Positions 7,812 through 60,300 of a stretch of DNA of 64,000 bases are shown here, one piece after another. The notes under the pieces were generated by a model. That model did no database searches. It had not been told where the DNA came from and saw only the letters and a list, made by a program, of their open reading frames with translations. This DNA is from Heterodontus francisci (lineage: Eukaryota). The stretch is taken from the NCBI RefSeq assembly GCF_036365525.1, contig NC_090385.1, forward strand, positions 63,434,170 to 63,498,169, in the 5' to 3' direction. Within the stretch, counting starts at the first letter, position 1; every line of letters starts with the position of its first letter. Made by a program: the position numbers and the translations under genes.

Positions 7812-9330
7812 CAGTCTTCTTTGGCCTCCTTGTCTCAAGGTGGTCAGTGGTTTGTGGAGCAGTGCCTGGAGTGGCTATAAAGGCCAATTCTAGAGTGACA
7901 GACTCTTCCACAGGCGCTGCAGATAAAATTGGTTGTTGGGGCTGTTACACAGTTGGCTCTCTTCTTCCACTTCTGTCTCTTTTCCTGCCAACTGCTGAGT
8001 CTCTTCGACTCGCCTCTCTTCAGACCCGCCTTTATAGCTGTCTGCCAGCTCTGGCGATCGCTAGCAACTGACTCACACGACTTGTGGTCAATGTCGCACA
8101 ACTTCATGTCGCATTTGCAGACGTCTTTAAAGCGGAGACATGGATGGCCAGTGGGTCTGATACCAGTGACGAGCTTGCTGTACAATGCATCCTTGGGGAT
8201 CCTGCCATCTTCCATGCGGCTCACATGGCCAAGCCATCTCGAGCGCCACTGGTTCAGTAGGGTGTATATGCTGGGGATGTTGGCCACCTTGAGGACTTCT
8301 GTGTTGGAGATACGGTCCTGCCACCTGATGCCAAGGATTCTCCGGAGGCAACGAAGATGGAATGCGTTGAGACATCACTCTTGGCTGACATACGTTGTCC
8401 AGGCCTCGCTGCCGTAGAGCAAGGTATTGAGGACACAGGCTTGAAACACTCGGACTTTTGTGTTCCGTGTCGGTACGCCATTTTCCCACAGTCTCTTGGC
8501 CAGTCTGGACATAGCAGCAGACGCCTTTCCCATGCGCTTGTTGATTTCTGCATCGAGAGACAGGTTATTGGTGATAGTTGAACCTAGGTAGGTGAACTCT
8601 TGAACCACTTCCAGACCCTGGTCGCCGATATTGATGGATGGAGCATTTCTGATGTCCTGTCCCATGATGTTTGTTTTCTTGAGCCTGATGGTTAGGCCAA
8701 ATTCGTTGCAGGCAGCCGCAATCCTAGGAGTCTCTGCAGACACTCTTTCGTGTGGGATGTGCAGCATAGTCAGCAAAGAGGAGTTCCCTGATGAGGACTT
8801 TCCGTACTTTGGTCTTCGCTCTAAGACGGGCAAGGTTGAACAACCTGCCATCTGATCTTGTTTGAAGGAAAATTCCTTCTTCTGAAGACTTGAACGCATG
8901 TGAGAGCAGCAGTGAGAAGAAGATCCCAAACAGTGTAGGTGCGAGAACACAGCCCTGTTCCACGCCACTCAGGATAGGAAATGGGTCTGATGAGGCGCTG
9001 CTATGCTGAATTGTGCCTTTCATATTATCATGGGTTGAGCTGATGATACTTAGTAGCTTTGGTGGACGTACTATCTTTGCTAGTAGTCTGAAGATACCAC
9101 GTCTGCTGACGAGGTCAGAGGCTGTGGTGAGATCTATGAAGGCAACGTCGAGGGGCATCTGTTGTTCGCGGCATTTCTCCAGTAGCTGGCCAAGGGAGAA
9201 CAGCATGTCAATGGTGGATCTCTCTGCTTGAAAGCCGCACTGTGTCTCAGTTTAGCATGCTCAGCCAGCTTCTGGAGTCTGTTTAAAACGATTCGAACGA
9301 AGACTTTCCCCACAATGCTGAGCAGTAATG
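7812..9330 (-). mobile_element. RTE-clade LINE, 5'-truncated, frameshifted RT
   Basis: SGVEQGCVLAPTLFGIFFS; RELLFAD; FTYLGS; LLYGSEAWT; RWLGHVSRMEDGRIPKDALY; C-terminal CSACGRVCHSRIGLYSH. Confidence 0.92.
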
Positions 9331-14000: not shown

Positions 14001-14660
14001 CTGTCTCACCCAATTCTCTGTGCACATTGGTGTTTCTCTCTAATATTACCTGCTGGCTCCCACACCCCTGCCAAGTTAATTTAAAACCTCCTCAGTAGCA
14101 CTAAAAAATTGCCCTGCAAGGACCTTGGTCCTGGCTCTGCCGTGACTCTGTTCAGGTGGAACTCGTCTGGCCTGTACAGAGCCCATCTCCCCCAGACCTG
14201 GTACCAATGTCCCAGGAATCTAAAGCCCTCCCTCCTGGATCATCTCTCCAGCCACACGTTTATCTGCTCTATCCTTCTATTTCTGTACTCATTTGCATGT
14301 GGTACTAGAAATAAAGTGGAGATTTCTCTGAGGTCCTGTTTGCTAGATACATTTTTAGCTCCCTATACTCTGCCTGCAGGACCTCATCCCTCTTTCAGTC
14401 TATGTCGTTGGTACCAATTTGGAGCACGACCACTGGCTGTTCACCCTTCCCCTTAAGACCACTCTGCAGCTGATCAGTGACATGCTTGATCCTGGCAACA
14501 GGGAGGCAACATACCATCCTGAATTCATGTCTGTGACTGCAGAAACACCCGTCTGTTTCCCTATCTATTGAATCCCCTATCGCTATTGCTCTTCCAATCT
14601 TCCTCATGCCTTCCTGTACAGCTGAGCCTGCCATGGACTAGGCTCTGGTTGCACACTCCA
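11050..14660 (-). mobile_element. Degraded near full-length CR1 (host of nested LINEs; ORF1 resumes at about 20290-20400)
   Basis: ORF2 pieces (DKSPGLDEMHPRML, EWADKWQMKF) and ORF1 esterase pieces (AIGDSI, IGTNDI); 20290-20400 minus strand reads EQQVAAPRRICEIESFMDSTFIDVVNPQL, homologous to CR1 ORF1. Confidence 0.88.
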
Positions 14661-15730: not shown

Positions 15731-18685
15731 CTAAACCTGTCGCCTATTTTCTAAGGGTCTGTATCTCTTTACTTCCTGCCCATTCATGTATCTGTCTAGA
15801 TACATCTTAAAAGATGCTATCGTGCCCGCGTCTACCACCTCCGCTGGCAATGCGTTCCATGCACCCACCACCCTCTGCGTAAAGAAATTTCCACGCATAT
15901 CCCCCCTAAACTTTTCCCCTTTCACTTTGAACTCGTGTCCCCTTGTAATTGAATCCCCCACTCTGGGAAAAAGCTTCTTGCTATCCACTCTGTCTATACC
16001 TCTCATGATTGTGTACACCTCAATCAGGTCCCCCCTTAACCTCCGTCTTTCTAATGAAAATAATCCTAATCTACTCAACCTCTCTTCATAGCTAGCGCCC
16101 TCCATACCAGGCAACATCCTGGTGAATCTCCTCTGCACCCTCTCCAAAGCATCCACATCCTTTTGGTAATGTGGCGACCAGAACTGCACGCAGTATTCCA
16201 AATGTGGCCGAACCAAAGTCCTATACAACTGTAACATGACCTGCCAACTCTTGTACTCAATACCCCGTCCGATGAAGGAAAGCATGCCGTATGCCTTCTT
16301 GACCACTCTATTGACCTGCGTTTCCACCTTCAGGGAACAATGGACCTGAACACCCAAATCTCTCTGTACATCAATTTTCCCCAGGACTTTTCCATTTACT
16401 GTATAGTTCACTCTTGAATTGGATCATCCAAAATGCATCACCTCGCATTTGCCCTGATTGAACTCCATCTGCCATTTCTCTGCCCAACTCTCCAGTCTAT
16501 CTATATTCTGCTGTATTCTCTGACAGTCCCCTTCAGTATCTGCTACTCCACCAATCTTAGTGTCGTCTGCAAACTTGCTAATCAGACCACCTATACTTTC
16601 CTCCAAATCATTTATGTATATCACAAACAACAGTGGTCCCAGCACGGATCCCTGTGGAACACCACTGGTCACACCTCTCCATTTTGAGAAACTCCCTTCC
16701 ACTGCTACTCTCTGTCTCCTGTTGCCCAGCCAGTTCTTTATCCATCTAGCTAGTACACCTTGGACCCCATGCGCCTTCACTTTCTCCATCAGCCTACCAT
16801 GGGGAACCTTATCAAACGCCTTACTGAAGTCCATGTATATGACATCTACAGCCCTTCCCTCATCAATCAACTTTGTCACTTCCTCAAAGAATTCTATTAA
16901 GTTGGTAAGACATGACCTTCCCTGCACAAAACCATGTTGCCTATCACTGATAAGCCCATTTTCTTCCAGATGGGAATAGATCCTATCCCTCAGTATCTTC
17001 TCCAGCAGCTTCCCTACCACTGACGTCAGGCTCACCAGTCTATAATTACCTGGATTATCCCTGCTACCCTTCTTAAACAAGGGGACAACATTAGCAATTT
17101 TCCAGTCCTCCGGGACCTCACCCGTGTTTAAGGATGTTGCAAAGATATCTGTTAAGGCCCCAACTAATTCCTCTCTCGCTTCCCACAGTAACCTGGGATA
17201 GATTCCATCCGGACCTGGGGACTTGTCCACCTTAATGCCTTTTAGAATACCCAACACTTCCTCCCTCCTTATGCCGACTTGACCTAGAGTAATCAAACAT
17301 CTGTCCCTAACCTCAACATCCGTCATGTCCCTCTCCTCGGTGAATACCGATGCAAAGTACTCATTTAGAATCTCACCCATTTTCTCTGACTCCACGCATA
17401 ACTTTCCTCCTTTGTCCTTGAGTGGGCCAATCCTTTCTCTCGTTACCCTCTTGCTCCTTATATATGAATAAAAGGCTTTGGGAGTTTCCTTAACCCTTTT
17501 TGCTAAAGATATTTCATGACCCCTTTTAGCCCTCTTAATTCCTCGTTTCAGATTGTGCCTACAATCCCGATATTCTTTCAAAGCTTCGTCTTTCTTCAGC
17601 CGCCTAGACCTTATGTATGCTTCCTTTTTCCTCTTAGCTAGTCTCACAATTTCACCTGTCATCCATGGTTCCCTAATCTTGCCATTTCTATCCCTCATTT
17701 TCACAGGAACATGTCTCTCCTGCACGCTAATCAACCTCTCTTTAAAAGACTCCCACATATCAAATGTGGATTTACCTTCAAACAGCTGCTCCCAATCTAC
17801 ATTTCCCAGCTCCTGCCGAATTTTGGTATAGTTGGCCTTCCCCCAATTTAGCACTCTTCCTTTAGGACCACTCTCGTCTTTGTCCATGAGTATTCTAAAA
17901 CTTACGGAATTGTGATCGCTATTCCCAAAGTAGTCCCCTACTGAAACTTCAACCACCTGGCCGGGCTCATTCCCCAACACCAGGTCCAGTATGGCCCCTT
18001 CCCAAGTTGGACTATTTACATACTGCTCTAGAAAACCCTCCTGGATGCTCCTTACAAATTCTGCTCCATCTAGACCTCTAACATTAAGTGAATCCCAGTC
18101 AATGTTGGGAAAATTAAAATCTCCTATCACCACCACCCTGTTGCTCCTACAGCTTTCCATAATTTGTTTACATATTTGTACCTCTATCTCACGCTCGCTG
18201 TTGGGAGGCCTGTAGTACAGCCCCAACATTGTTACCGCACCCTTCCTATTTCTGAGTTCTGCCCATATTGCCTCACAGCTCGAGTCCTCCATAGTGCCTT
18301 CCTTCAGCACAGCTGTGATATCCTGTTTGACCAGTAATGCAACTCCTCCACCCCTTTTACCTCCCTCTCTATCCCGCCTGAAGCATCGGTATCCTGGGAT
18401 ATTTAGTTGCCAATCATGCCCTTCCCTTAACCAAGTCTCAGTCATAGCAATAACATCATACTCCCAGGTACTAATCCAAGCCCTAAGTTCATCTGCCTTA
18501 CCTACTACACTTCTTGCATTAAAACAAATACACCTCAGACCACCAGTCCCTTTGCTTTCATCATCTGCTCCCTGCCTACTCTTTCCCTTAGTCACGCTGA
18601 CTTCATTATCTAGTTCCTTACAGGCTTTAGTTACTACATCCTTACTCTCCACTGACCTCATTTGGTTCCCATCCCCCTGCCACAT
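15731..18685 (-). pseudogene. CR1 ORF2p (APE endonuclease plus reverse transcriptase), 984 codons with one in-frame TGA at 16424-16426
   Basis: CFNARS, TETW, YYRPP, GDFN, SDH; QHGF, GVPQGSVLGP, FADD; ORFs 16424..18685 and 15731..16411 are the same frame. Confidence 0.94.
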
Positions 18686-19632
18686 TAGTTTAAACCCTCC
18701 CCAACAGCGTTAGCAAAAGCACCCCCAAGGACATTGGTTCCAGTCTGGCCCAGGTGTAGACCGTCCAATTTGTAATAGTCCCACCTCCCCCAGAACCGGT
18801 CCCAATGTCCCAAAAATCTGAACCCCTCCCTCTTGCACCATCTCTCAAGCCACGCATTCATCCTGACTATTCTTTCATTTCTACTCTGACTATCATGTGG
18901 CACTGGTAGCAATCCAGAGATTACTACCTCTGAGGTCCTACTTTTTAACTTGGCTCCTAACTCCCTAAATTCTGCTTGTAGGACCTCACCCCGTTTTTTA
19001 CCTATATCATTGGTGCCTATGTGCACAACGACAACTGGCTGTTCACCCTCCCCCTTCAGAATGTTCTGCAGCCGATCTGAGACATCCCTGACCCGTGCAC
19101 CTGGGAGGCAACATACCATTCGGGAGTCTCGTTTTCGACCACAGAACCGCCTATCTACTCCCCTTACAATCGAATCCCCTATGACTATAGCCCTTCCACT
19201 CTTTTTCCCGCCCTTCCGAACAGCAGAGCCAGCCACGGTGCCATGAACCTGGCTACTGCTGCCTTCCCCTGGTGAGCCATCTCCCTCAACAGTATCCAAA
19301 ACGGTATACCTGTTGTGGAGGGAGATGACCGCAGGGGACACCTGCGCTGCCTTCCTGCTCTTTCTCTGCCTTTTGGTCACCCATTCCCTTTCTCCCTCAG
19401 CAATCCTAATCTGCGGTGTGACCAATTCGCTAAACGTGCTATCCACGACCTCCTCAGCATCGCGGATGCTCCAAAGTGAGTCCATCCGCAGCTCCAGAGC
19501 CGTCATGCGGTCTAACAAGAGCTGCAGCTGGACACACTTCCAGCACGTGAAGGAGTCAGGGACATCAGCCATGTCCCTGAGCTCCCACATTGAGCAAGAG
19601 GAGCATGTCACGGGTCTGAGATCTCCTGCCAT
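18685..19632 (-). CDS. CR1 ORF1p: CxxC/CxxC zinc finger, leucine zipper, SGNH/GDSL esterase (315 aa, intact)
   Basis: CSSC..CWKC; IVIGDSIVR; HIGTNDI; DGLHL. Confidence 0.92.
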   Translation of the reverse strand: MAGDLRPVTCSSCSMWELRDMADVPDSFTCWKCVQLQLLLDRMTALELRMDSLWSIRDAEEVVDSTFSELVTPQIRIAEGEREWVTKRQRKSRKAAQVSPAVISLHNRYTVLDTVEGDGSPGEGSSSQVHGTVAGSAVRKGGKKSGRAIVIGDSIVRGVDRRFCGRKRDSRMVCCLPGARVRDVSDRLQNILKGEGEQPVVVVHIGTNDIGKKRGEVLQAEFRELGAKLKSRTSEVVISGLLPVPHDSQSRNERIVRMNAWLERWCKREGFRFLGHWDRFWGRWDYYKLDGLHLGQTGTNVLGGAFANAVGEGLN

Positions 19633-30200: not shown

Positions 30201-31540
30201 CTTCCTTTACAACACTACAATATCTTCCCTAATCAGTACTGCCACCCTATGTTCCTTTTTTCCTTCTCTATCTTTTCTGAACACTTGTGTGTCCTTGTGT
30301 ATTAGGAGCCTAGTCCTTACCATTTTTAAGCCACGTTTCACTTATTGCCACTACATCATATTCCTAGGCTGCTATTTGTGCTTGTAGCTCACCAACCTTA
30401 TTCATCACACTTTGTACGTTTACAAACATGCATTGTAATCCTGTCTTTGCATTCCTCATAGTCCTTCTCAGTCTGCTCCTTTCTAATATAGAACTTCTCC
30501 CTTCTCTAGTACTTTCTAACACTCTAGCATTATGCACTTTATTTGTCTTTTCTACTTCTATATGCTGTTGCCCACCCCCCTGCTAATTTAGTTTAAACCC
30601 TTCCCAACCGCACTAGTCAATCTCCTCGCGAGGATATTGGTCCAAGTCCTGTTGAGGTGCAACCTGTCTCTTTTGATTAGGTGCCTTCTGCCCCAGAACT
30701 GGTTCCAATGCTGTAAGAATCTGAAGCCCTCCCTCCTGCACCATGCTTCAAGCTAAGCATTCATCCTTCCTATCTTCCTATTTCTACTCTCGCTAGCACG
30801 TGGCACTAGGAATAATCCAGAGATTACTATCTTTGAGGTCTTACTCTTTAACTTCCTCCCTAGCTCCTGAAAATCTGACTGTAGGACCTCAGTAGCTGTC
30901 CCGGCTATGTTGTTGGTACCAACATGTACCACAACTTCTTGCTCACTCCCTTCCCCCTGCAGAATATCCTGCACCCTCTCCATGATGTCCTTTACCCTGG
31001 CACCAGGGAGGCAACACGCCCTGTGGGACTCATGATGACAGTTACAGAAATGCCTGTCTGTTCCCCCTGATTATGGAGTCACCTATAACAACTGCATTTC
31101 TGACTTTTCTGTTCCCTCCTGTATAGTCACATGCCCATTGGTGCCATGGTTTTGGCTGTATAACTTCAGGGTATCGTCACTCCCAGCAGCCTCCAATGCT
31201 GAGTATCGGTTTGAGCGTGGCACACACCCGAAGTCTTCTGGGGTTCCTGCTTCTTCCGGATGGCCACCCACTTACTAACCTGAACTCCTACTGCTTATGA
31301 GGTAACCACCTCCTGGAACGTACAATCCAGGAAACTCTCCTGCTCCCTGATGTTCTACAGTGATTCCAGCTGCCCTTCAAGCTTGAGCTGAAGCAGCTGG
31401 AGACACTTCCTACACACATAGTCAGCCAAGACACATGAAGTGTCCTTAAGTTCCCACATGGCACAGGAATTGCAAGCAACAGGTTGTAGCTGCCCATTCA
31501 TGATCTAAAACAAAACCCTCTTTAAAAAGAAACCCTCTTT
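27265..31540 (-). mobile_element. Degraded full-length CR1 (ORF1 and ORF2 remnants)
   Basis: ORF1 start MNGQLQPVACNSCAMWE near 31501, HVGTNNI; ORF2 GDFNYP, SQHG, REDLTEVYK; tail tctatgactct. Confidence 0.9.
29097..29435. mobile_element. hAT-type MITE (339 bp) inserted in CR1
   Basis: TIRs TAAAGGCCCGCT / AGCAGGCCTTTT; perfect 8-bp TSD TGCCATTC at 29089-29096 and 29436-29443; repeated TCGGG/CCCGA subterminal motifs. Confidence 0.88.
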
Positions 31541-57362: not shown

Positions 57363-60300
57363 CTCTAGCACTAGGGGCCTTTTTTTTTTTAGATTAGAGA
57401 TACAGCACTGAAACAGGCCCTTCGGCCCACCGAGTCTGTGCCGAACATCAACCACCCATTTATACTAATCCTACATTAATCCCATATTCCTACCAAACAT
57501 CCCCACCTGTCCCTATATTTCCCTACCACCTACCTATACTAGTGACAATTTATAATGGCCAATTTTACCCATCAACCTGCAAGTCTTTTGGCTTGTGGGA
57601 GGAAACCGGAGCACCCGGAGAAAACCCACGCAGACACAGGGAGAACTTGCAAACTCCACACAGGCAGTACCTGGAATCGAACCTGGGTCCCTGGAGCTGT
57701 GAGGCTGCAGTGCTAACCACTGCGCCACTCACTGGGCCATATCGTTAATTATAACAATTTAGTAAGGATTTAATAAGTATTTATTTTTATTTATTAAATA
57801 GTGCTAGAAATGTCAGAGGGGTGAAGTACTTCACCTGCGAGATGTGGGAGGTCTGTGACGCTTCCAGCGTTCTGGACAACTACATCTGCAGGAAATGTAC
57901 CCAGTTGCAGCTCCTCACAGACCGCATGGATCGGTTGGAGCAGCAACTGGATTCACTTAGGAGCATGCAGGTGGCAGAAAGTGTCATAGACAGGAGTTTT
58001 AGAGAAGTGGTTACACCCAAGGTGCAGGCAGATAGATGGATGACTGCTAGAAGGGGCAGGCAGTCAGTGCAGGAATCCCCTGTTGGCTATCCCCCTCTCT
58101 AACAAGTATACCATTTTGGATACAGTTGGGGGGGGATGGCCTATCAGGGGAAAACAGCAGCAGCCAGAGCAGTGGCACCACGGCTGGCACTGTTGTTCAG
58201 CAGGGAGGGACAAAGCGCAGAAGAGCAATAGTTATAGGGGACTCTATAGTCAGGGGCACAGATAGGCGCTTCTGTGGACGTGAAAGAGACTTCAGGATGG
58301 TATGTTGCCTCCCTGGTGCCAGGGTCAAGGATGTCTCTGAACTGACAGGGGGCATTCTGAAGGGGGAGGGTGAACAGCCAGAGGTTGTGGTATACATCGG
58401 TACCAATGACATAGGCAGGAAGAGTGATGAGGTCCTGCAGGGGTAGTTCAGGGAGTTAGGTAGAAAGTTAAAAGACAGGACCTCTAGGGTTCTAATCTCG
58501 GGATTACTCCCTGTGCCACGTGCCAGTGAGGCTAGAAATAGGAAGATAGTGCAGCTAAACACGTGGCTGAACAGCTGGTGTAGAAGGGAGGGTTTCAGAT
58601 ATCTGGACCATTGGGATCTCTTCAGGGACAGATGGGACCTGTACAAGAAGGACGGGTTGCATCTAAACTGGAGGGGCACAAATATCCTGGCTGTGAGGTT
58701 TGCTAGCGTCACTTGGGAGGGTTTAAACTTGTGTGGCAGGGGGGTGGGGACCAGAGCAGTAGGACAGCAAGTGAAATAAATGAGGGGGAACTAGTAAATA
58801 AGGCCAGTAAGACTGAGAGGAAGAGCAGGTAGGGAGATGTTGCGGAGCACAGCGGGACTGGTGGTCTGAAGTGCATTTGTTTCAATGTGAGAAGTATAAC
58901 AGGTAAGGCAGATGAACTTAGAGCTTGGATTAGTACTTGAAACTATGATGTTGGTATTACAGAGACTTGGTTGAGGGAAGGACAGGATTGGCAGCTAAAT
59001 GTTCCAGGATTTAGAAGCTTCAGGCGGGAAAGAGGGGGATGGAAAAGGGGTGGGGGAGTTGCATTACTGGCTAAGGATAATATCACAACTGTACTGCGGG
59101 AGGACACCTCGGAGGGGTCATGCAGCGAGGCAATGTGGGTGGAGCTCAGGAATAGGAAAGGTGCAGTCACGATGTTGGGTATTTACTACAGGCCTCCCAA
59201 CAGCCAGCGGGAGGTGGAGGAGCAGATATGTAGACAGATTTTGGAAAGATGTAAAGGTAACAGGGTTGTAGTGGTGGGTGATTTTAACTTCCCCTATATT
59301 GACTGGGACTCACTTAGTGCAAGGGGCTTCGATGGGGCAGAATTTGTAAGGAACATCCAGGAGGGCTTCTTGAAACAATACGTAGATAGTCCAACTAGGG
59401 ATGGGGCTGTACTGGACCTGGTATTGGGGAATGAGCCCGGCCAGGTGGTCGAAGTTTCAGTAGGGGAGCATTTCGGGAACAGTGACCATAATTCCATAAG
59501 TTTTAAGGTACTTGTGGATAAGGATAAGAGTAGTCCTCGGGTGAAGGTGCTAAATTGGGGGAAGGCTAATTATAACAATATTAGGCAGGAACTGAAGAAT
59601 TTAGATTGGGGGCTGCTATTTGAGGGTAAATCAACATCTGACATGTGGGAGTCTTTCAAACATCAGTTGATTAGAATCCAGGACCAGCATGTTCCTGTGA
59701 GGAAGAAGGATAAGTTTGGCGAATTTCGGGAACCTTGGATAACGCGGGATATTGTGAGCCTTGTCAAAAAGAAAAAGGAAGCATTCGTAAGGGCTGGAAG
59801 GCTAGGAACAGACGAATCCCTTGAGGAATATAAAGACAGTAGGAAGGAACTTAAGCAAGGAGTCAGGAGGGATAAAAGGGGTTATGAGAACTCATTGGCA
59901 AACAGGATTAAGGAAAATCCCAAGGCTATTTATACGTATATAAAGAGCAAGAGGGTAACCAGGGAAAGGGTTGGCCCACTCAAGGACAGAGGAGGGAATC
60001 TATGTGTGGAGCCAGAGGAAATGGGCAAGGTACTAAATGAGTACTTTGCATCAGAATTCACCAAGGAGAAGGACTTGGTGGATGATGAGCCTAGGGAAGG
60101 GAGTGTAGTTAGTCTCAGTCATCTCATTATCAAAAAGGAGGAGGTGTTGGGTGTCTTGCAAAGCATTAAGGTAGATTATGCCCCAGGGCCTGATGGGATC
60201 GACCCCAGAATACTGAGGGAGGCAAGGGAAGAAATTGCTGCGGCCTTGACAGAAATCTTTGCATCCTCGTTGGCTACAGGTGAGGTTCCAGAGGACTGGG

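Follow-up and report, generated by a model that had tools for sequence, protein, structure and literature searches.

CR1 LINEs of Heterodontus francisci probably make an esterase-endonuclease-reverse transcriptase (RT) fusion of about 1300 aa by programmed -1 frameshifting at a U_UUA_AAC heptamer at the end of ORF1. ORF2 is likely reached by a one-base slip of the ribosome because the heptamer, the stop codon and a downstream G tract are fixed and a start codon is often absent. Such a fusion had been proposed in an earlier note on this DNA; codon invariance, the G tract, apparent heptamer swaps and the absence of a usable AUG from 7 of 12 families speak strongly for it, while the part of the proposal that invoked overlapping heptamers was not supported. 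The window, that is, the whole 64,000-nucleotide stretch analysed, contains four junctions of this type, and the element carrying the first of them is laid out as follows:

18688..19632, minus strand: CR1 ORF1, 315 aa from Met, with C-terminal G-L-N
about 18739-19185, minus strand: SGNH/GDSL esterase domain (PF13472, E 3.8e-14) of ORF1, whose N-terminus is zinc-finger-like
18688..18694, minus strand: slippery heptamer U_UUA_AAC, phased with the ORF1 frame, the predicted shift site
18691..18697, minus strand: overlapping G_GGU_UUA, kept only in 10/12 own-genome families
18685..18687, minus strand: ORF1 stop TAA, abutting the 3' end of the heptamer
18683-18685, minus strand: ATG overlapping the stop (UAAUG), among own families in F1 only
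18668..18680, minus strand: G-rich tract, at a constant +8 to +20 from the heptamer, candidate stimulator
18710..18712, minus strand: -1-frame stop, 5 codons 5' of the heptamer, with no AUG between this stop and the heptamer
15734..18688, minus strand: ORF2, in the -1 frame relative to ORF1
within ORF2, minus strand: linker of ~55 aa, endonuclease (about 17912-18523) and RT (about 16436-17068)

An in-frame TGA at 16424-16426 interrupts the ORF2 of this copy; the 315 aa of ORF1, counted from Met, and the 985 aa of an intact relative's ORF2 add up to 1300 aa. In profile searches, the PF13472 match in ORF1 exceeded the curated cut-off, which places the element among those with an esterase ORF1, and ORF2 matched an APE endonuclease (PF03372) followed by an RT (PF00078). 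Named ORF1 matches came from sharks, rays and a chimaera. All four window junctions are those of esterase-ORF1 CR1 LINEs. The CR1 label is a presumptive one, drawn from the domain layout and from ORF1 relatives found among birds and reptiles. CR1 LINEs with the heptamer junction are abundant in the H. francisci genome.

Re-reading of the minus strand from 18700 to 18660 gave ...GAG GGT TTA AAC TAA at the end of ORF1 and GGG TTT AAA CTA ATG TGG CAG in the -1 frame of ORF2, just as first described. As claimed, U_UUA_AAC is found again at 58722-58728 and 30591-30597. CTA is indeed followed by ATG, GTG, AAT and ACT, respectively, in the four copies. The other three junctions are:

58722..58748, plus strand: copy 2, family F2; heptamer, decayed stop TTG, GTG, G tract
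30571..30597, minus strand: copy 3, family F3; heptamer, TAA, AAT, G tract
14059..14085, minus strand: copy 4, family F4; decayed TTTAAAT, with family majority TTTAAAC TAA ACT

The signal had been called retained in all four copies; three have the heptamer, and the U_UUA_AAU of copy 4 (14079-14085) is a single-copy decay, the F4 majority being GGG TTTAAAC TAA. The F2 family carries TAG where copy 2 has TTG, and copy 3 (30591) has TAG at the expected W codon. As to the common spacing to W-Q-G and the G tract, the latter proved invariant and W-Q-G varies. The pattern TTAAACTARNNNNGNRGGNG, with ≤1 mismatch, gave exactly 4 window matches, namely, the junctions, versus 0.10 expected from 100 shuffles, a result that speaks to specificity rather than serving as an independent test, as the pattern was built partly from the four copies. 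Eight further TTTAAAC sites occur in the window, and the six examined were not junctions.

We compared the junction across 20 lineages, comprising 12 own-genome families (F1 to F12), 7 bird-type lineages and 1 echinoderm-type lineage from a sea-cucumber-like host, which are related, so that counts of lineages are not counts of independent events. TTAAAC-TA was invariant in 20/20, each lineage had an X_XXY_YYZ heptamer in phase with ORF1, and the ORF1 stop was always TAA or TAG. The full U_UUA_AAC was present in 19 lineages; the sole exception has G_UUA_AAC, which is given as an arterivirus-type site in excerpts of two sources (PMC3542737, PMC5009743). Codons TTA and AAC were each fixed in 18/18 lineages tested. 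A single codon was retained in none of the 10 conserved degenerate columns upstream (all 18 lineages) and in none of the 8 conserved Leu columns upstream (10 own families). TTA accounted for 27 of 188 Leu codons in the upstream region compared, Leu pairs shared a codon in 166/425 own-family and 53/146 bird-type comparisons, and ORF1 C-terminal identity among the lineages fell to as low as 19%. A refutation test had been named beforehand, i.e., whether synonymous codons that break the heptamer are common; run on TTA and AAC, it did not refute the heptamer idea. Within families, heptamer retention among genomic copies was similar to flank retention, as expected of neutral decay. The two overlapping heptamers of the earlier note are both present at 18688-18697, but only U_UUA_AAC is conserved; G_GGU_UUA was lost in 10/20 lineages and varied in RNA reads, and we rejected it as a second functional site.

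Protein data extend the comparison to distant relatives. L-N forms the terminus of 144 of 192 ORF1 matches; the residue before it varies (G, A, S, T, C, Y, D, N, V) and is incompatible with a U-ending codon in only 1 of the 144 proteins, and E, Q, K, M or W preceded L-N in 1/41 after de-duplication. Asn is the last residue in 70 of the 113 representatives at 50% identity that reach the C-terminus. The residue before it is L in 54, G in 10 and K in 2, all residues of XXA codons; the other 43 representatives have no terminal Asn. Q stands before G-N in 9/10 such termini, which on protein sequence fits G_GGA_AAC; most of the G-N group, known from protein sequence, belongs to a single clade. L-N, G-N and K-N termini alternate inside one clade. 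These protein ends suggest swaps between canonical heptamers. S-N ends, found in 7 of 17 echinoderm-type ORF1s, cannot give a perfect heptamer. Searches for DNA of Q-G-N and S-N elements returned only bacterial SGNH genes, chance matches and own L-N families, and no ORF1 relatives were found in viral contigs. Fish ZfL2-1-like ORF1 matches end differently (e.g., ...RTI); thus, the signal is not common to all esterase LINEs.

The statement that the heptamer is conserved and the AUG is not was borne out, as only 1 of 12 own families has AUG at the ORF2 start codon. Codons at this position are ATG, GTG, AAT, ACT, AAT, GTT, ATT, GTT, AAA, ATT, GTC and GAA. In 7/12 own families, no AUG lies ahead of the endonuclease's first motif and the -1 frame is open from the heptamer: F2, F6, F7, F8, F10 and F11 have their first Met only past the endonuclease's first Asn motif, as do single copies of F9. 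None of the 20 lineages has a -1-frame AUG upstream of the heptamer. Between heptamer and endonuclease, the -1 frame is open in the majority sequences of 11 of the 12 families and in individual copies of the remaining one. The linker stays in frame although its sequence and length vary, with the Asn motif anywhere from codon 37 to codon 88. Copies of F2 and F11 are 96-98% alike; thus, AUG-less families spread recently.

Alternatively, as has been suggested for SART1 and L1, ribosomes could terminate at the UAR stop and restart in the -1 frame there or close by, using an AUG where one exists and doing without it elsewhere, giving a separate ORF2p, with the heptamer merely easing back-sliding after termination. 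The stop is held directly at the heptamer in 20/20 lineages, as this mechanism would have it, and UAAUG occurs in 30/30 copies of F1, the window's own family. However, a start codon that overlaps or adjoins the stop is confined to F1 and 4/7 bird-type copies, which have AUG two bases past the stop; the other 11 own families have no AUG there and mostly non-initiator codons (AAA, GAA, AAT, ACT, GTT, GTC). Met does precede or coincide with the endonuclease start in F3, F4, F5, F12 and lineage L196. UGGGA, which in reinitiation of the SART1 or calicivirus TURBS type is expected 40-90 nt ahead of the stop, lies within 100 nt upstream in 11/12 own families, mostly at -89 inside W-D codons; it is found in only 1/7 bird-type copies and not in L196. 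According to excerpts of reviews, L1 accepts any sense codon for the ORF2 AUG and SART1 uses UAAUG; yet SART1 requires a downstream structure, and none was found at CR1 junctions. Reinitiation predicts neither an in-phase X_XXY_YYZ nor swaps among L-N, G-N and K-N. The family tree has too low a resolution to date the AUG of F1. Altogether, we consider reinitiation unlikely and prefer programmed frameshifting.

G was found at +11, +12 and +14 from the heptamer in 20/20 lineages, and the G-tract positions +8, +11 and +14 are third codon positions whose encoded amino acids change. The tract sits 5-9 nt from the heptamer, where stimulators typically lie 3' of a shift site, as stated in a portion of one source (PMC3542737). 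No stable hairpin or pseudoknot was found 3' of the heptamer in the 20 lineages (folding z -3.0 to +1.3, 1/20 below -2), in agreement with the earlier remark that no strong downstream hairpin is obvious. An Rfam scan of 18450-18850 gave one match at chance level. No long-range partner of the G tract was conserved, with the best partners differing among 14 elements; a C-rich stretch ~650 nt upstream pairs in F1, F2, F6 and F7 but is changed in F3, F5, F8, F9 and F10, and was rejected. With no hairpin, pseudoknot or long-range partner, the canonical second frameshift element is thus missing. A two-tier G-quadruplex was predicted in only 10/20 lineages.

A G tract devoid of structure resembles a protein-binding site, and the motif might have another RNA or DNA function, for example as an internal promoter, a splice signal or a site where ORF1p or a host protein binds in particle assembly, with ORF2 expressed by another route. 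On inspection, TTTAAA is TATA-like and CAG/G in W-Q-G families is splice-acceptor-like, but F5 and the bird-type copies have no CAG, a shorter transcript would still need the AUG that 7/12 families lack, and the motif keeps a fixed register with the reading frames and the stop. In reads and contigs of four other runs, the codon after CTA, TAA/TAG and G_GGU vary and TTTAAAC-TA does not; no splice joints or indels were seen at the junction in 31-53 RNA reads or contigs of thin coverage, mostly from other families, and the 31 that bear on a splice signal argue against it. Such a function is very improbable. Even less credible is protein-level conservation of C-terminal L-N and the overlapping F-K-L-x-W-Q-G, combined with shared ancestry and no recoding, for although L-N is common and ORF1 C-termini of the related own families are up to 86% identical, synonymous sites elsewhere vary, distant relatives can have G or K in place of L, the F-K would stay untranslated for want of an upstream start in the -1 frame, and the codon comparison largely refutes it.

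In the frameshift that we favor, a minority of ribosomes would slip back one base at U_UUA_AAC and continue into ORF2, with Leu-tRNA and Asn-tRNA re-pairing from UUA AAC to UUU AAA and a predicted junction peptide of ...L-N followed by L-x-W-Q-G. The pause would likely come from the adjacent UAR stop plus the G tract, protein-bound or folded as a G-quadruplex. Most ribosomes would terminate, giving a high ORF1p:ORF2 ratio comparable to that of gag and gag-pol. More tentatively, and at somewhat less than an even chance, CR1 across animals (cartilaginous fish, birds, reptiles, echinoderms and invertebrate-like lineages) may make a gag-pol-like fusion via interchangeable U_UUA_AAC, G_GGA_AAC and A_AAA_AAC, stimulated by the adjacent stop and short G tract with no pseudoknot; a protein-bound or G-quadruplex stimulator would be of a kind undescribed for cellular RNAs.

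How LINE ORF2 is translated is a standing question, and reviews, as excerpted, present reinitiation as the rule (PMC5009743 among them). If true, a conserved CR1 frameshift would alter the picture of how a large part of vertebrate retrotransposons express ORF2, because CR1 is the dominant LINE of birds and very abundant in H. francisci. As in gag-pol, the enzyme would be joined to the esterase protein of ORF1, ORF2 annotations beginning at a downstream Met would be wrong, and a structure-free G-rich stimulator, within a junction cassette ~30 nt long, would be new to frameshift biology; a 2016 review calls natural G-quadruplex stimulators "not currently known" (PMC5009743). No earlier report of a CR1 frameshift signal was found in the literature searched, whose scope did not take in the original CR1 papers. 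The CR1/ZfL2-1 esterase-ORF1 elements (PMC3905857) have the same SGNH esterase ORF1 and EN-RT ORF2, and the word "frameshift" is absent from the text of that paper.

Among known systems, SART1 and L1 resemble CR1 in their bicistronic LINE RNA, F1 having UAAUG as SART1 does and the AUG being dispensable in L1; however, by the review excerpts, L1 contains a spacer of 63 nt and SART1 relies on a structure downstream, whereas CR1 has a fixed heptamer and, in 11/12 own families, no AUG at the ORF2 start codon. The CR1 junction has its heptamer class in common with coronavirus IBV (U_UUA_AAC) and equine arteritis virus (G_UUA_AAC-type), and U_UUA_AAC is ranked among the most shift-prone heptamers, together with A_AAA_AAC and G_GGA_AAC, in part of a review (PMC5009743). 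Viral sites have a pseudoknot or stem-loop 5-9 nt downstream, whereas CR1 has a short G tract there and a stop adjoining the heptamer; in pea enation mosaic virus, a stop close to the site promotes shifting, according to the same excerpt (PMC5009743). In Dictyostelium TRE5-A and TRE3-A, ORF2 translation requires a -1 frameshift, as stated in a review's figure legend (PMC5911963). Like CR1, these are APE-type non-LTR retrotransposons whose ORF2 is read in -1 relative to ORF1, but they belong to another clade and kingdom, and CR1 has a defined heptamer, stop and G tract conserved across animals. As in retroviral gag-pol, the CR1 arrangement places the structural protein in frame 0 and the polymerase in frame -1.

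The genome carrying the window (6.0 Gb) holds at least 40 copies of the family of copy 1 that are 99% alike across the ORF1/ORF2 junction (2292 candidates, 40 scored), and named relatives of the window ORF1 occur in sharks, rays, and a chimaera. Re-reading confirmed the copy 1 junction sequence given in an earlier note, and the note's four junctions were the sole ORF1 C-terminal matches within the window:

15.7-19.6 kb, minus strand: LINE (copy 1; heptamer at 18688-18694) whose ORF1 matches an SGNH esterase and whose ORF2 matches an endonuclease and RT
58722-58728, plus strand: copy 2 junction, stop decayed
30591-30597: copy 3 junction, W codon lost
14079-14085: copy 4 junction, full heptamer lacking

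Copy 4 itself lacks a full heptamer through decay; its family has one. The copy 1 ORF2 is interrupted by an in-frame TGA. Reverse transcriptase fragments of a different LINE, which we take to be RTE-like, lie in several frames at 7847-9251 on the minus strand.

Twelve CR1 families of this genome (F1 to F12) were collected, four via the window copies (F1 to F4) and the others via 80 random 10-kb stretches and a distant-protein search; each was enlarged by a DNA search and then read as a majority sequence. One query against the random stretches gave 16 ORF1 C-terminal matches, with TTTAAACTA exact in 11, decayed in 3, and cut before the junction in 2. Among 20 loci chosen via the distant protein, it was exact in 14 and showed one- or two-base decay in 6 (mostly one family). 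A metagenome scan yielded 30 loci, taken as single copies and not family majorities; the junction was reached in 10, of which nine carried the heptamer plus TAG and one (L216) had a decayed stop. All had bird-type ORF1s except L196, for which the named relatives come from sea cucumbers. The resulting 20 lineages comprise the 12 families, 7 bird-type loci, and L196, with L201 excluded because its contig ends.

Across these lineages, TTAAAC-TA is present without change or indel, the first U of the heptamer is kept in 19/20, and TAA or TAG serves as the stop; the three bases 3' of it vary freely. The yeast L-A frameshift site is G_GGU_UUA; this second, overlapping heptamer of the earlier note did not generalize, being present in only 10/20 lineages. 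The synonymous constraint that the note had proposed to look for on the L-N codons was found: in the 18 lineages whose ORF1 end could be read (frame breaks led us to drop F10, F12, and L198), the last Leu is TTA in 18/18 and the last Asn AAC in 18/18, versus 0/10 upstream conserved degenerate columns monomorphic. Within 10 own families alone, 6/40 upstream columns were monomorphic (0/15 among six-fold ones), and within the 7 bird-type lineages, 4/39. L-N or I-N terminates 144 of 192 ORF1 protein matches; in that set the preceding residue takes ten values, and only once is its codon unable to end in U. Reads and contigs of four runs from four organisms vary at 18681-18683, 18685, and 18695, with no variation listed at 18686-18694 or 18674-18680. 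The claimed constant spacing of the G-rich tract also held, since G, counted from the heptamer, is fixed at +11, +12, and +14 (20/20) and nearly so at +8, +13, +18, and +19 (19/20). Positions +8, +11, and +14 are −1-frame third positions. Because their G is fixed although the encoded residues change (W/M/Q/L/A/V/S; Q/K/E/G/R), versus G in only 138/419 third positions farther along the linker, the tract is, judging by its sequence, an RNA-level signal. On this conservation, the junction is a real, deeply conserved recoding-like signal.

A ribosome would arrive at UUA-AAC with UAR next and, by a low-frequency −1 shift, would read onward from CUA. In F1 this would give an esterase-endonuclease-RT fusion of 315 + 985 = 1300 aa, in agreement with the length first estimated. 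From the observed conservation we infer, as most likely, a −1 shift at UUA-AAC and with it a rate and a stimulator. The chief alternative is termination-reinitiation. In 20/20 lineages, the −1 frame contains no AUG from its upstream stop to the heptamer. Downstream, the first Asn motif of the endonuclease precedes the first Met in F2, F6, F7, F8, F10, and F11 (per open copy 13/15, 13/16, 5/6, 4/4, 7/7, and 8/8, respectively). The same holds in single copies of F9, for which the majority sequence carries an indel artefact. As previously noted, the ORF2-start AUG is not conserved. Linker sequences are unrelated among families, yet the reading frame is maintained. Against this pattern stand UAAUG in F1, an AUG two bases past the stop in 4/7 bird-type copies, and a Met inside the linker or first strand in F3, F4, F5, F12, and L196; in AUG-bearing families, reinitiation may occur alongside frameshifting.

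Several other features of the junction were observed. A −1-frame stop lies five codons ahead of the heptamer (window 18710-18712; kept in 11/12 own families), which limits the ORF1/ORF2 overlap to 22 nt. L183 (G000:C18:10000001-10010000), a 5'-truncated, more divergent copy, starts just ahead of TTTAAAC TAG plus the G tract, and its −1 frame runs on toward an endonuclease; L351 represents a further family with ATT as the start-position codon. Three F7 copies in a satellite-like array (L251 at G000:C817, L252, and L253) carry a G run ahead of the heptamer that is longer by one base, placing ORF1 and ORF2 in one frame (1281 open codons spanning both in L251). The extra G is probably either a homopolymer error or a change that followed insertion and was duplicated with the array.

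As for a stimulator, the earlier note saw no strong downstream hairpin; likewise, we found no conserved hairpin at the junction, no Rfam match there, and no conserved long-range pairing partner for the G tract. ViennaRNA predicted a G-quadruplex in 10/20 lineages, and bird-type tracts mostly have too few G runs for one. In some retro- and luteoviruses, a stop lies immediately 3' of the heptamer. Since shifting in pea enation mosaic virus needs a nearby stop (PMC5009743), the stop itself may, by analogy, supply the pause.

We searched 50%-identity representatives with a profile and followed the best 150 of 8235, of which 142 were examined and 113 reach the C-terminus. Within this best-scoring set, Asn is the last residue in 70/113, following L in 54, G in 10, K in 2, S in 2, F in 1, and E in 1; the other 43/113 end otherwise. 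UUA, GGA, and AAA, which encode L, G, and K, are the XXA codons in heptamers of the form X_XXA_AAC. Once the same set was de-duplicated, Q stands ahead of G-N in 9/10, and E/Q/K/M/W ahead of L-N in 1/41. L-N, G-N, K-N, and F-F ends are intermixed in one clade of 23 rows; the G-N rows come mostly from one clade, and a snake and a turtle are among the named L-N members. U_UUA_AAC, G_GGA_AAC, and A_AAA_AAC are among the most shift-prone sites in a review (PMC5009743), and at the protein level the terminal residues fit swaps among these three. A search for the DNA of the Q-G-N and S-N elements found none. S-N ends, seen in 7/17 echinoderm-type ORF1s, would leave just A_AAC plus the stop.

Echinoderm-type ORF1s (L196, P0242-P0258) end in L-N or S-N, and L196 itself has G_UUA_AAC, TAG, a G tract, and an intact ORF2 frame of 976 codons. 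Seven further, distant ORF1 proteins (P0306, P0330, P0366, P0323, P0333, P0357, and P0384) end in F-F-x or have W-x-K-N a few codons ahead of the stop; these could be candidate U_UUU_UUY or A_AAA_AAC sites at which the stop is not adjacent. P0007, a shark-type CR1 ORF1 under a bacterial name in NCBI, is likely host contamination.

The site is not described in the covered portions of the CR1/LINE frameshift literature (PMC5009743, PMC3905857, PMC5911963, PMC1965478, PMC2881922, PMC5972666, PMC3542737, and PMC11835228 among it), and "CR1" is absent from the first 300,000 characters of PMC5009743; the original chicken/turtle CR1 descriptions and Repbase notes lay outside the search and may remark on the overlap. 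Frameshifting in LINEs has precedent, because TRE5-A and TRE3-A are stated to require a −1 frameshift (PMC5911963).
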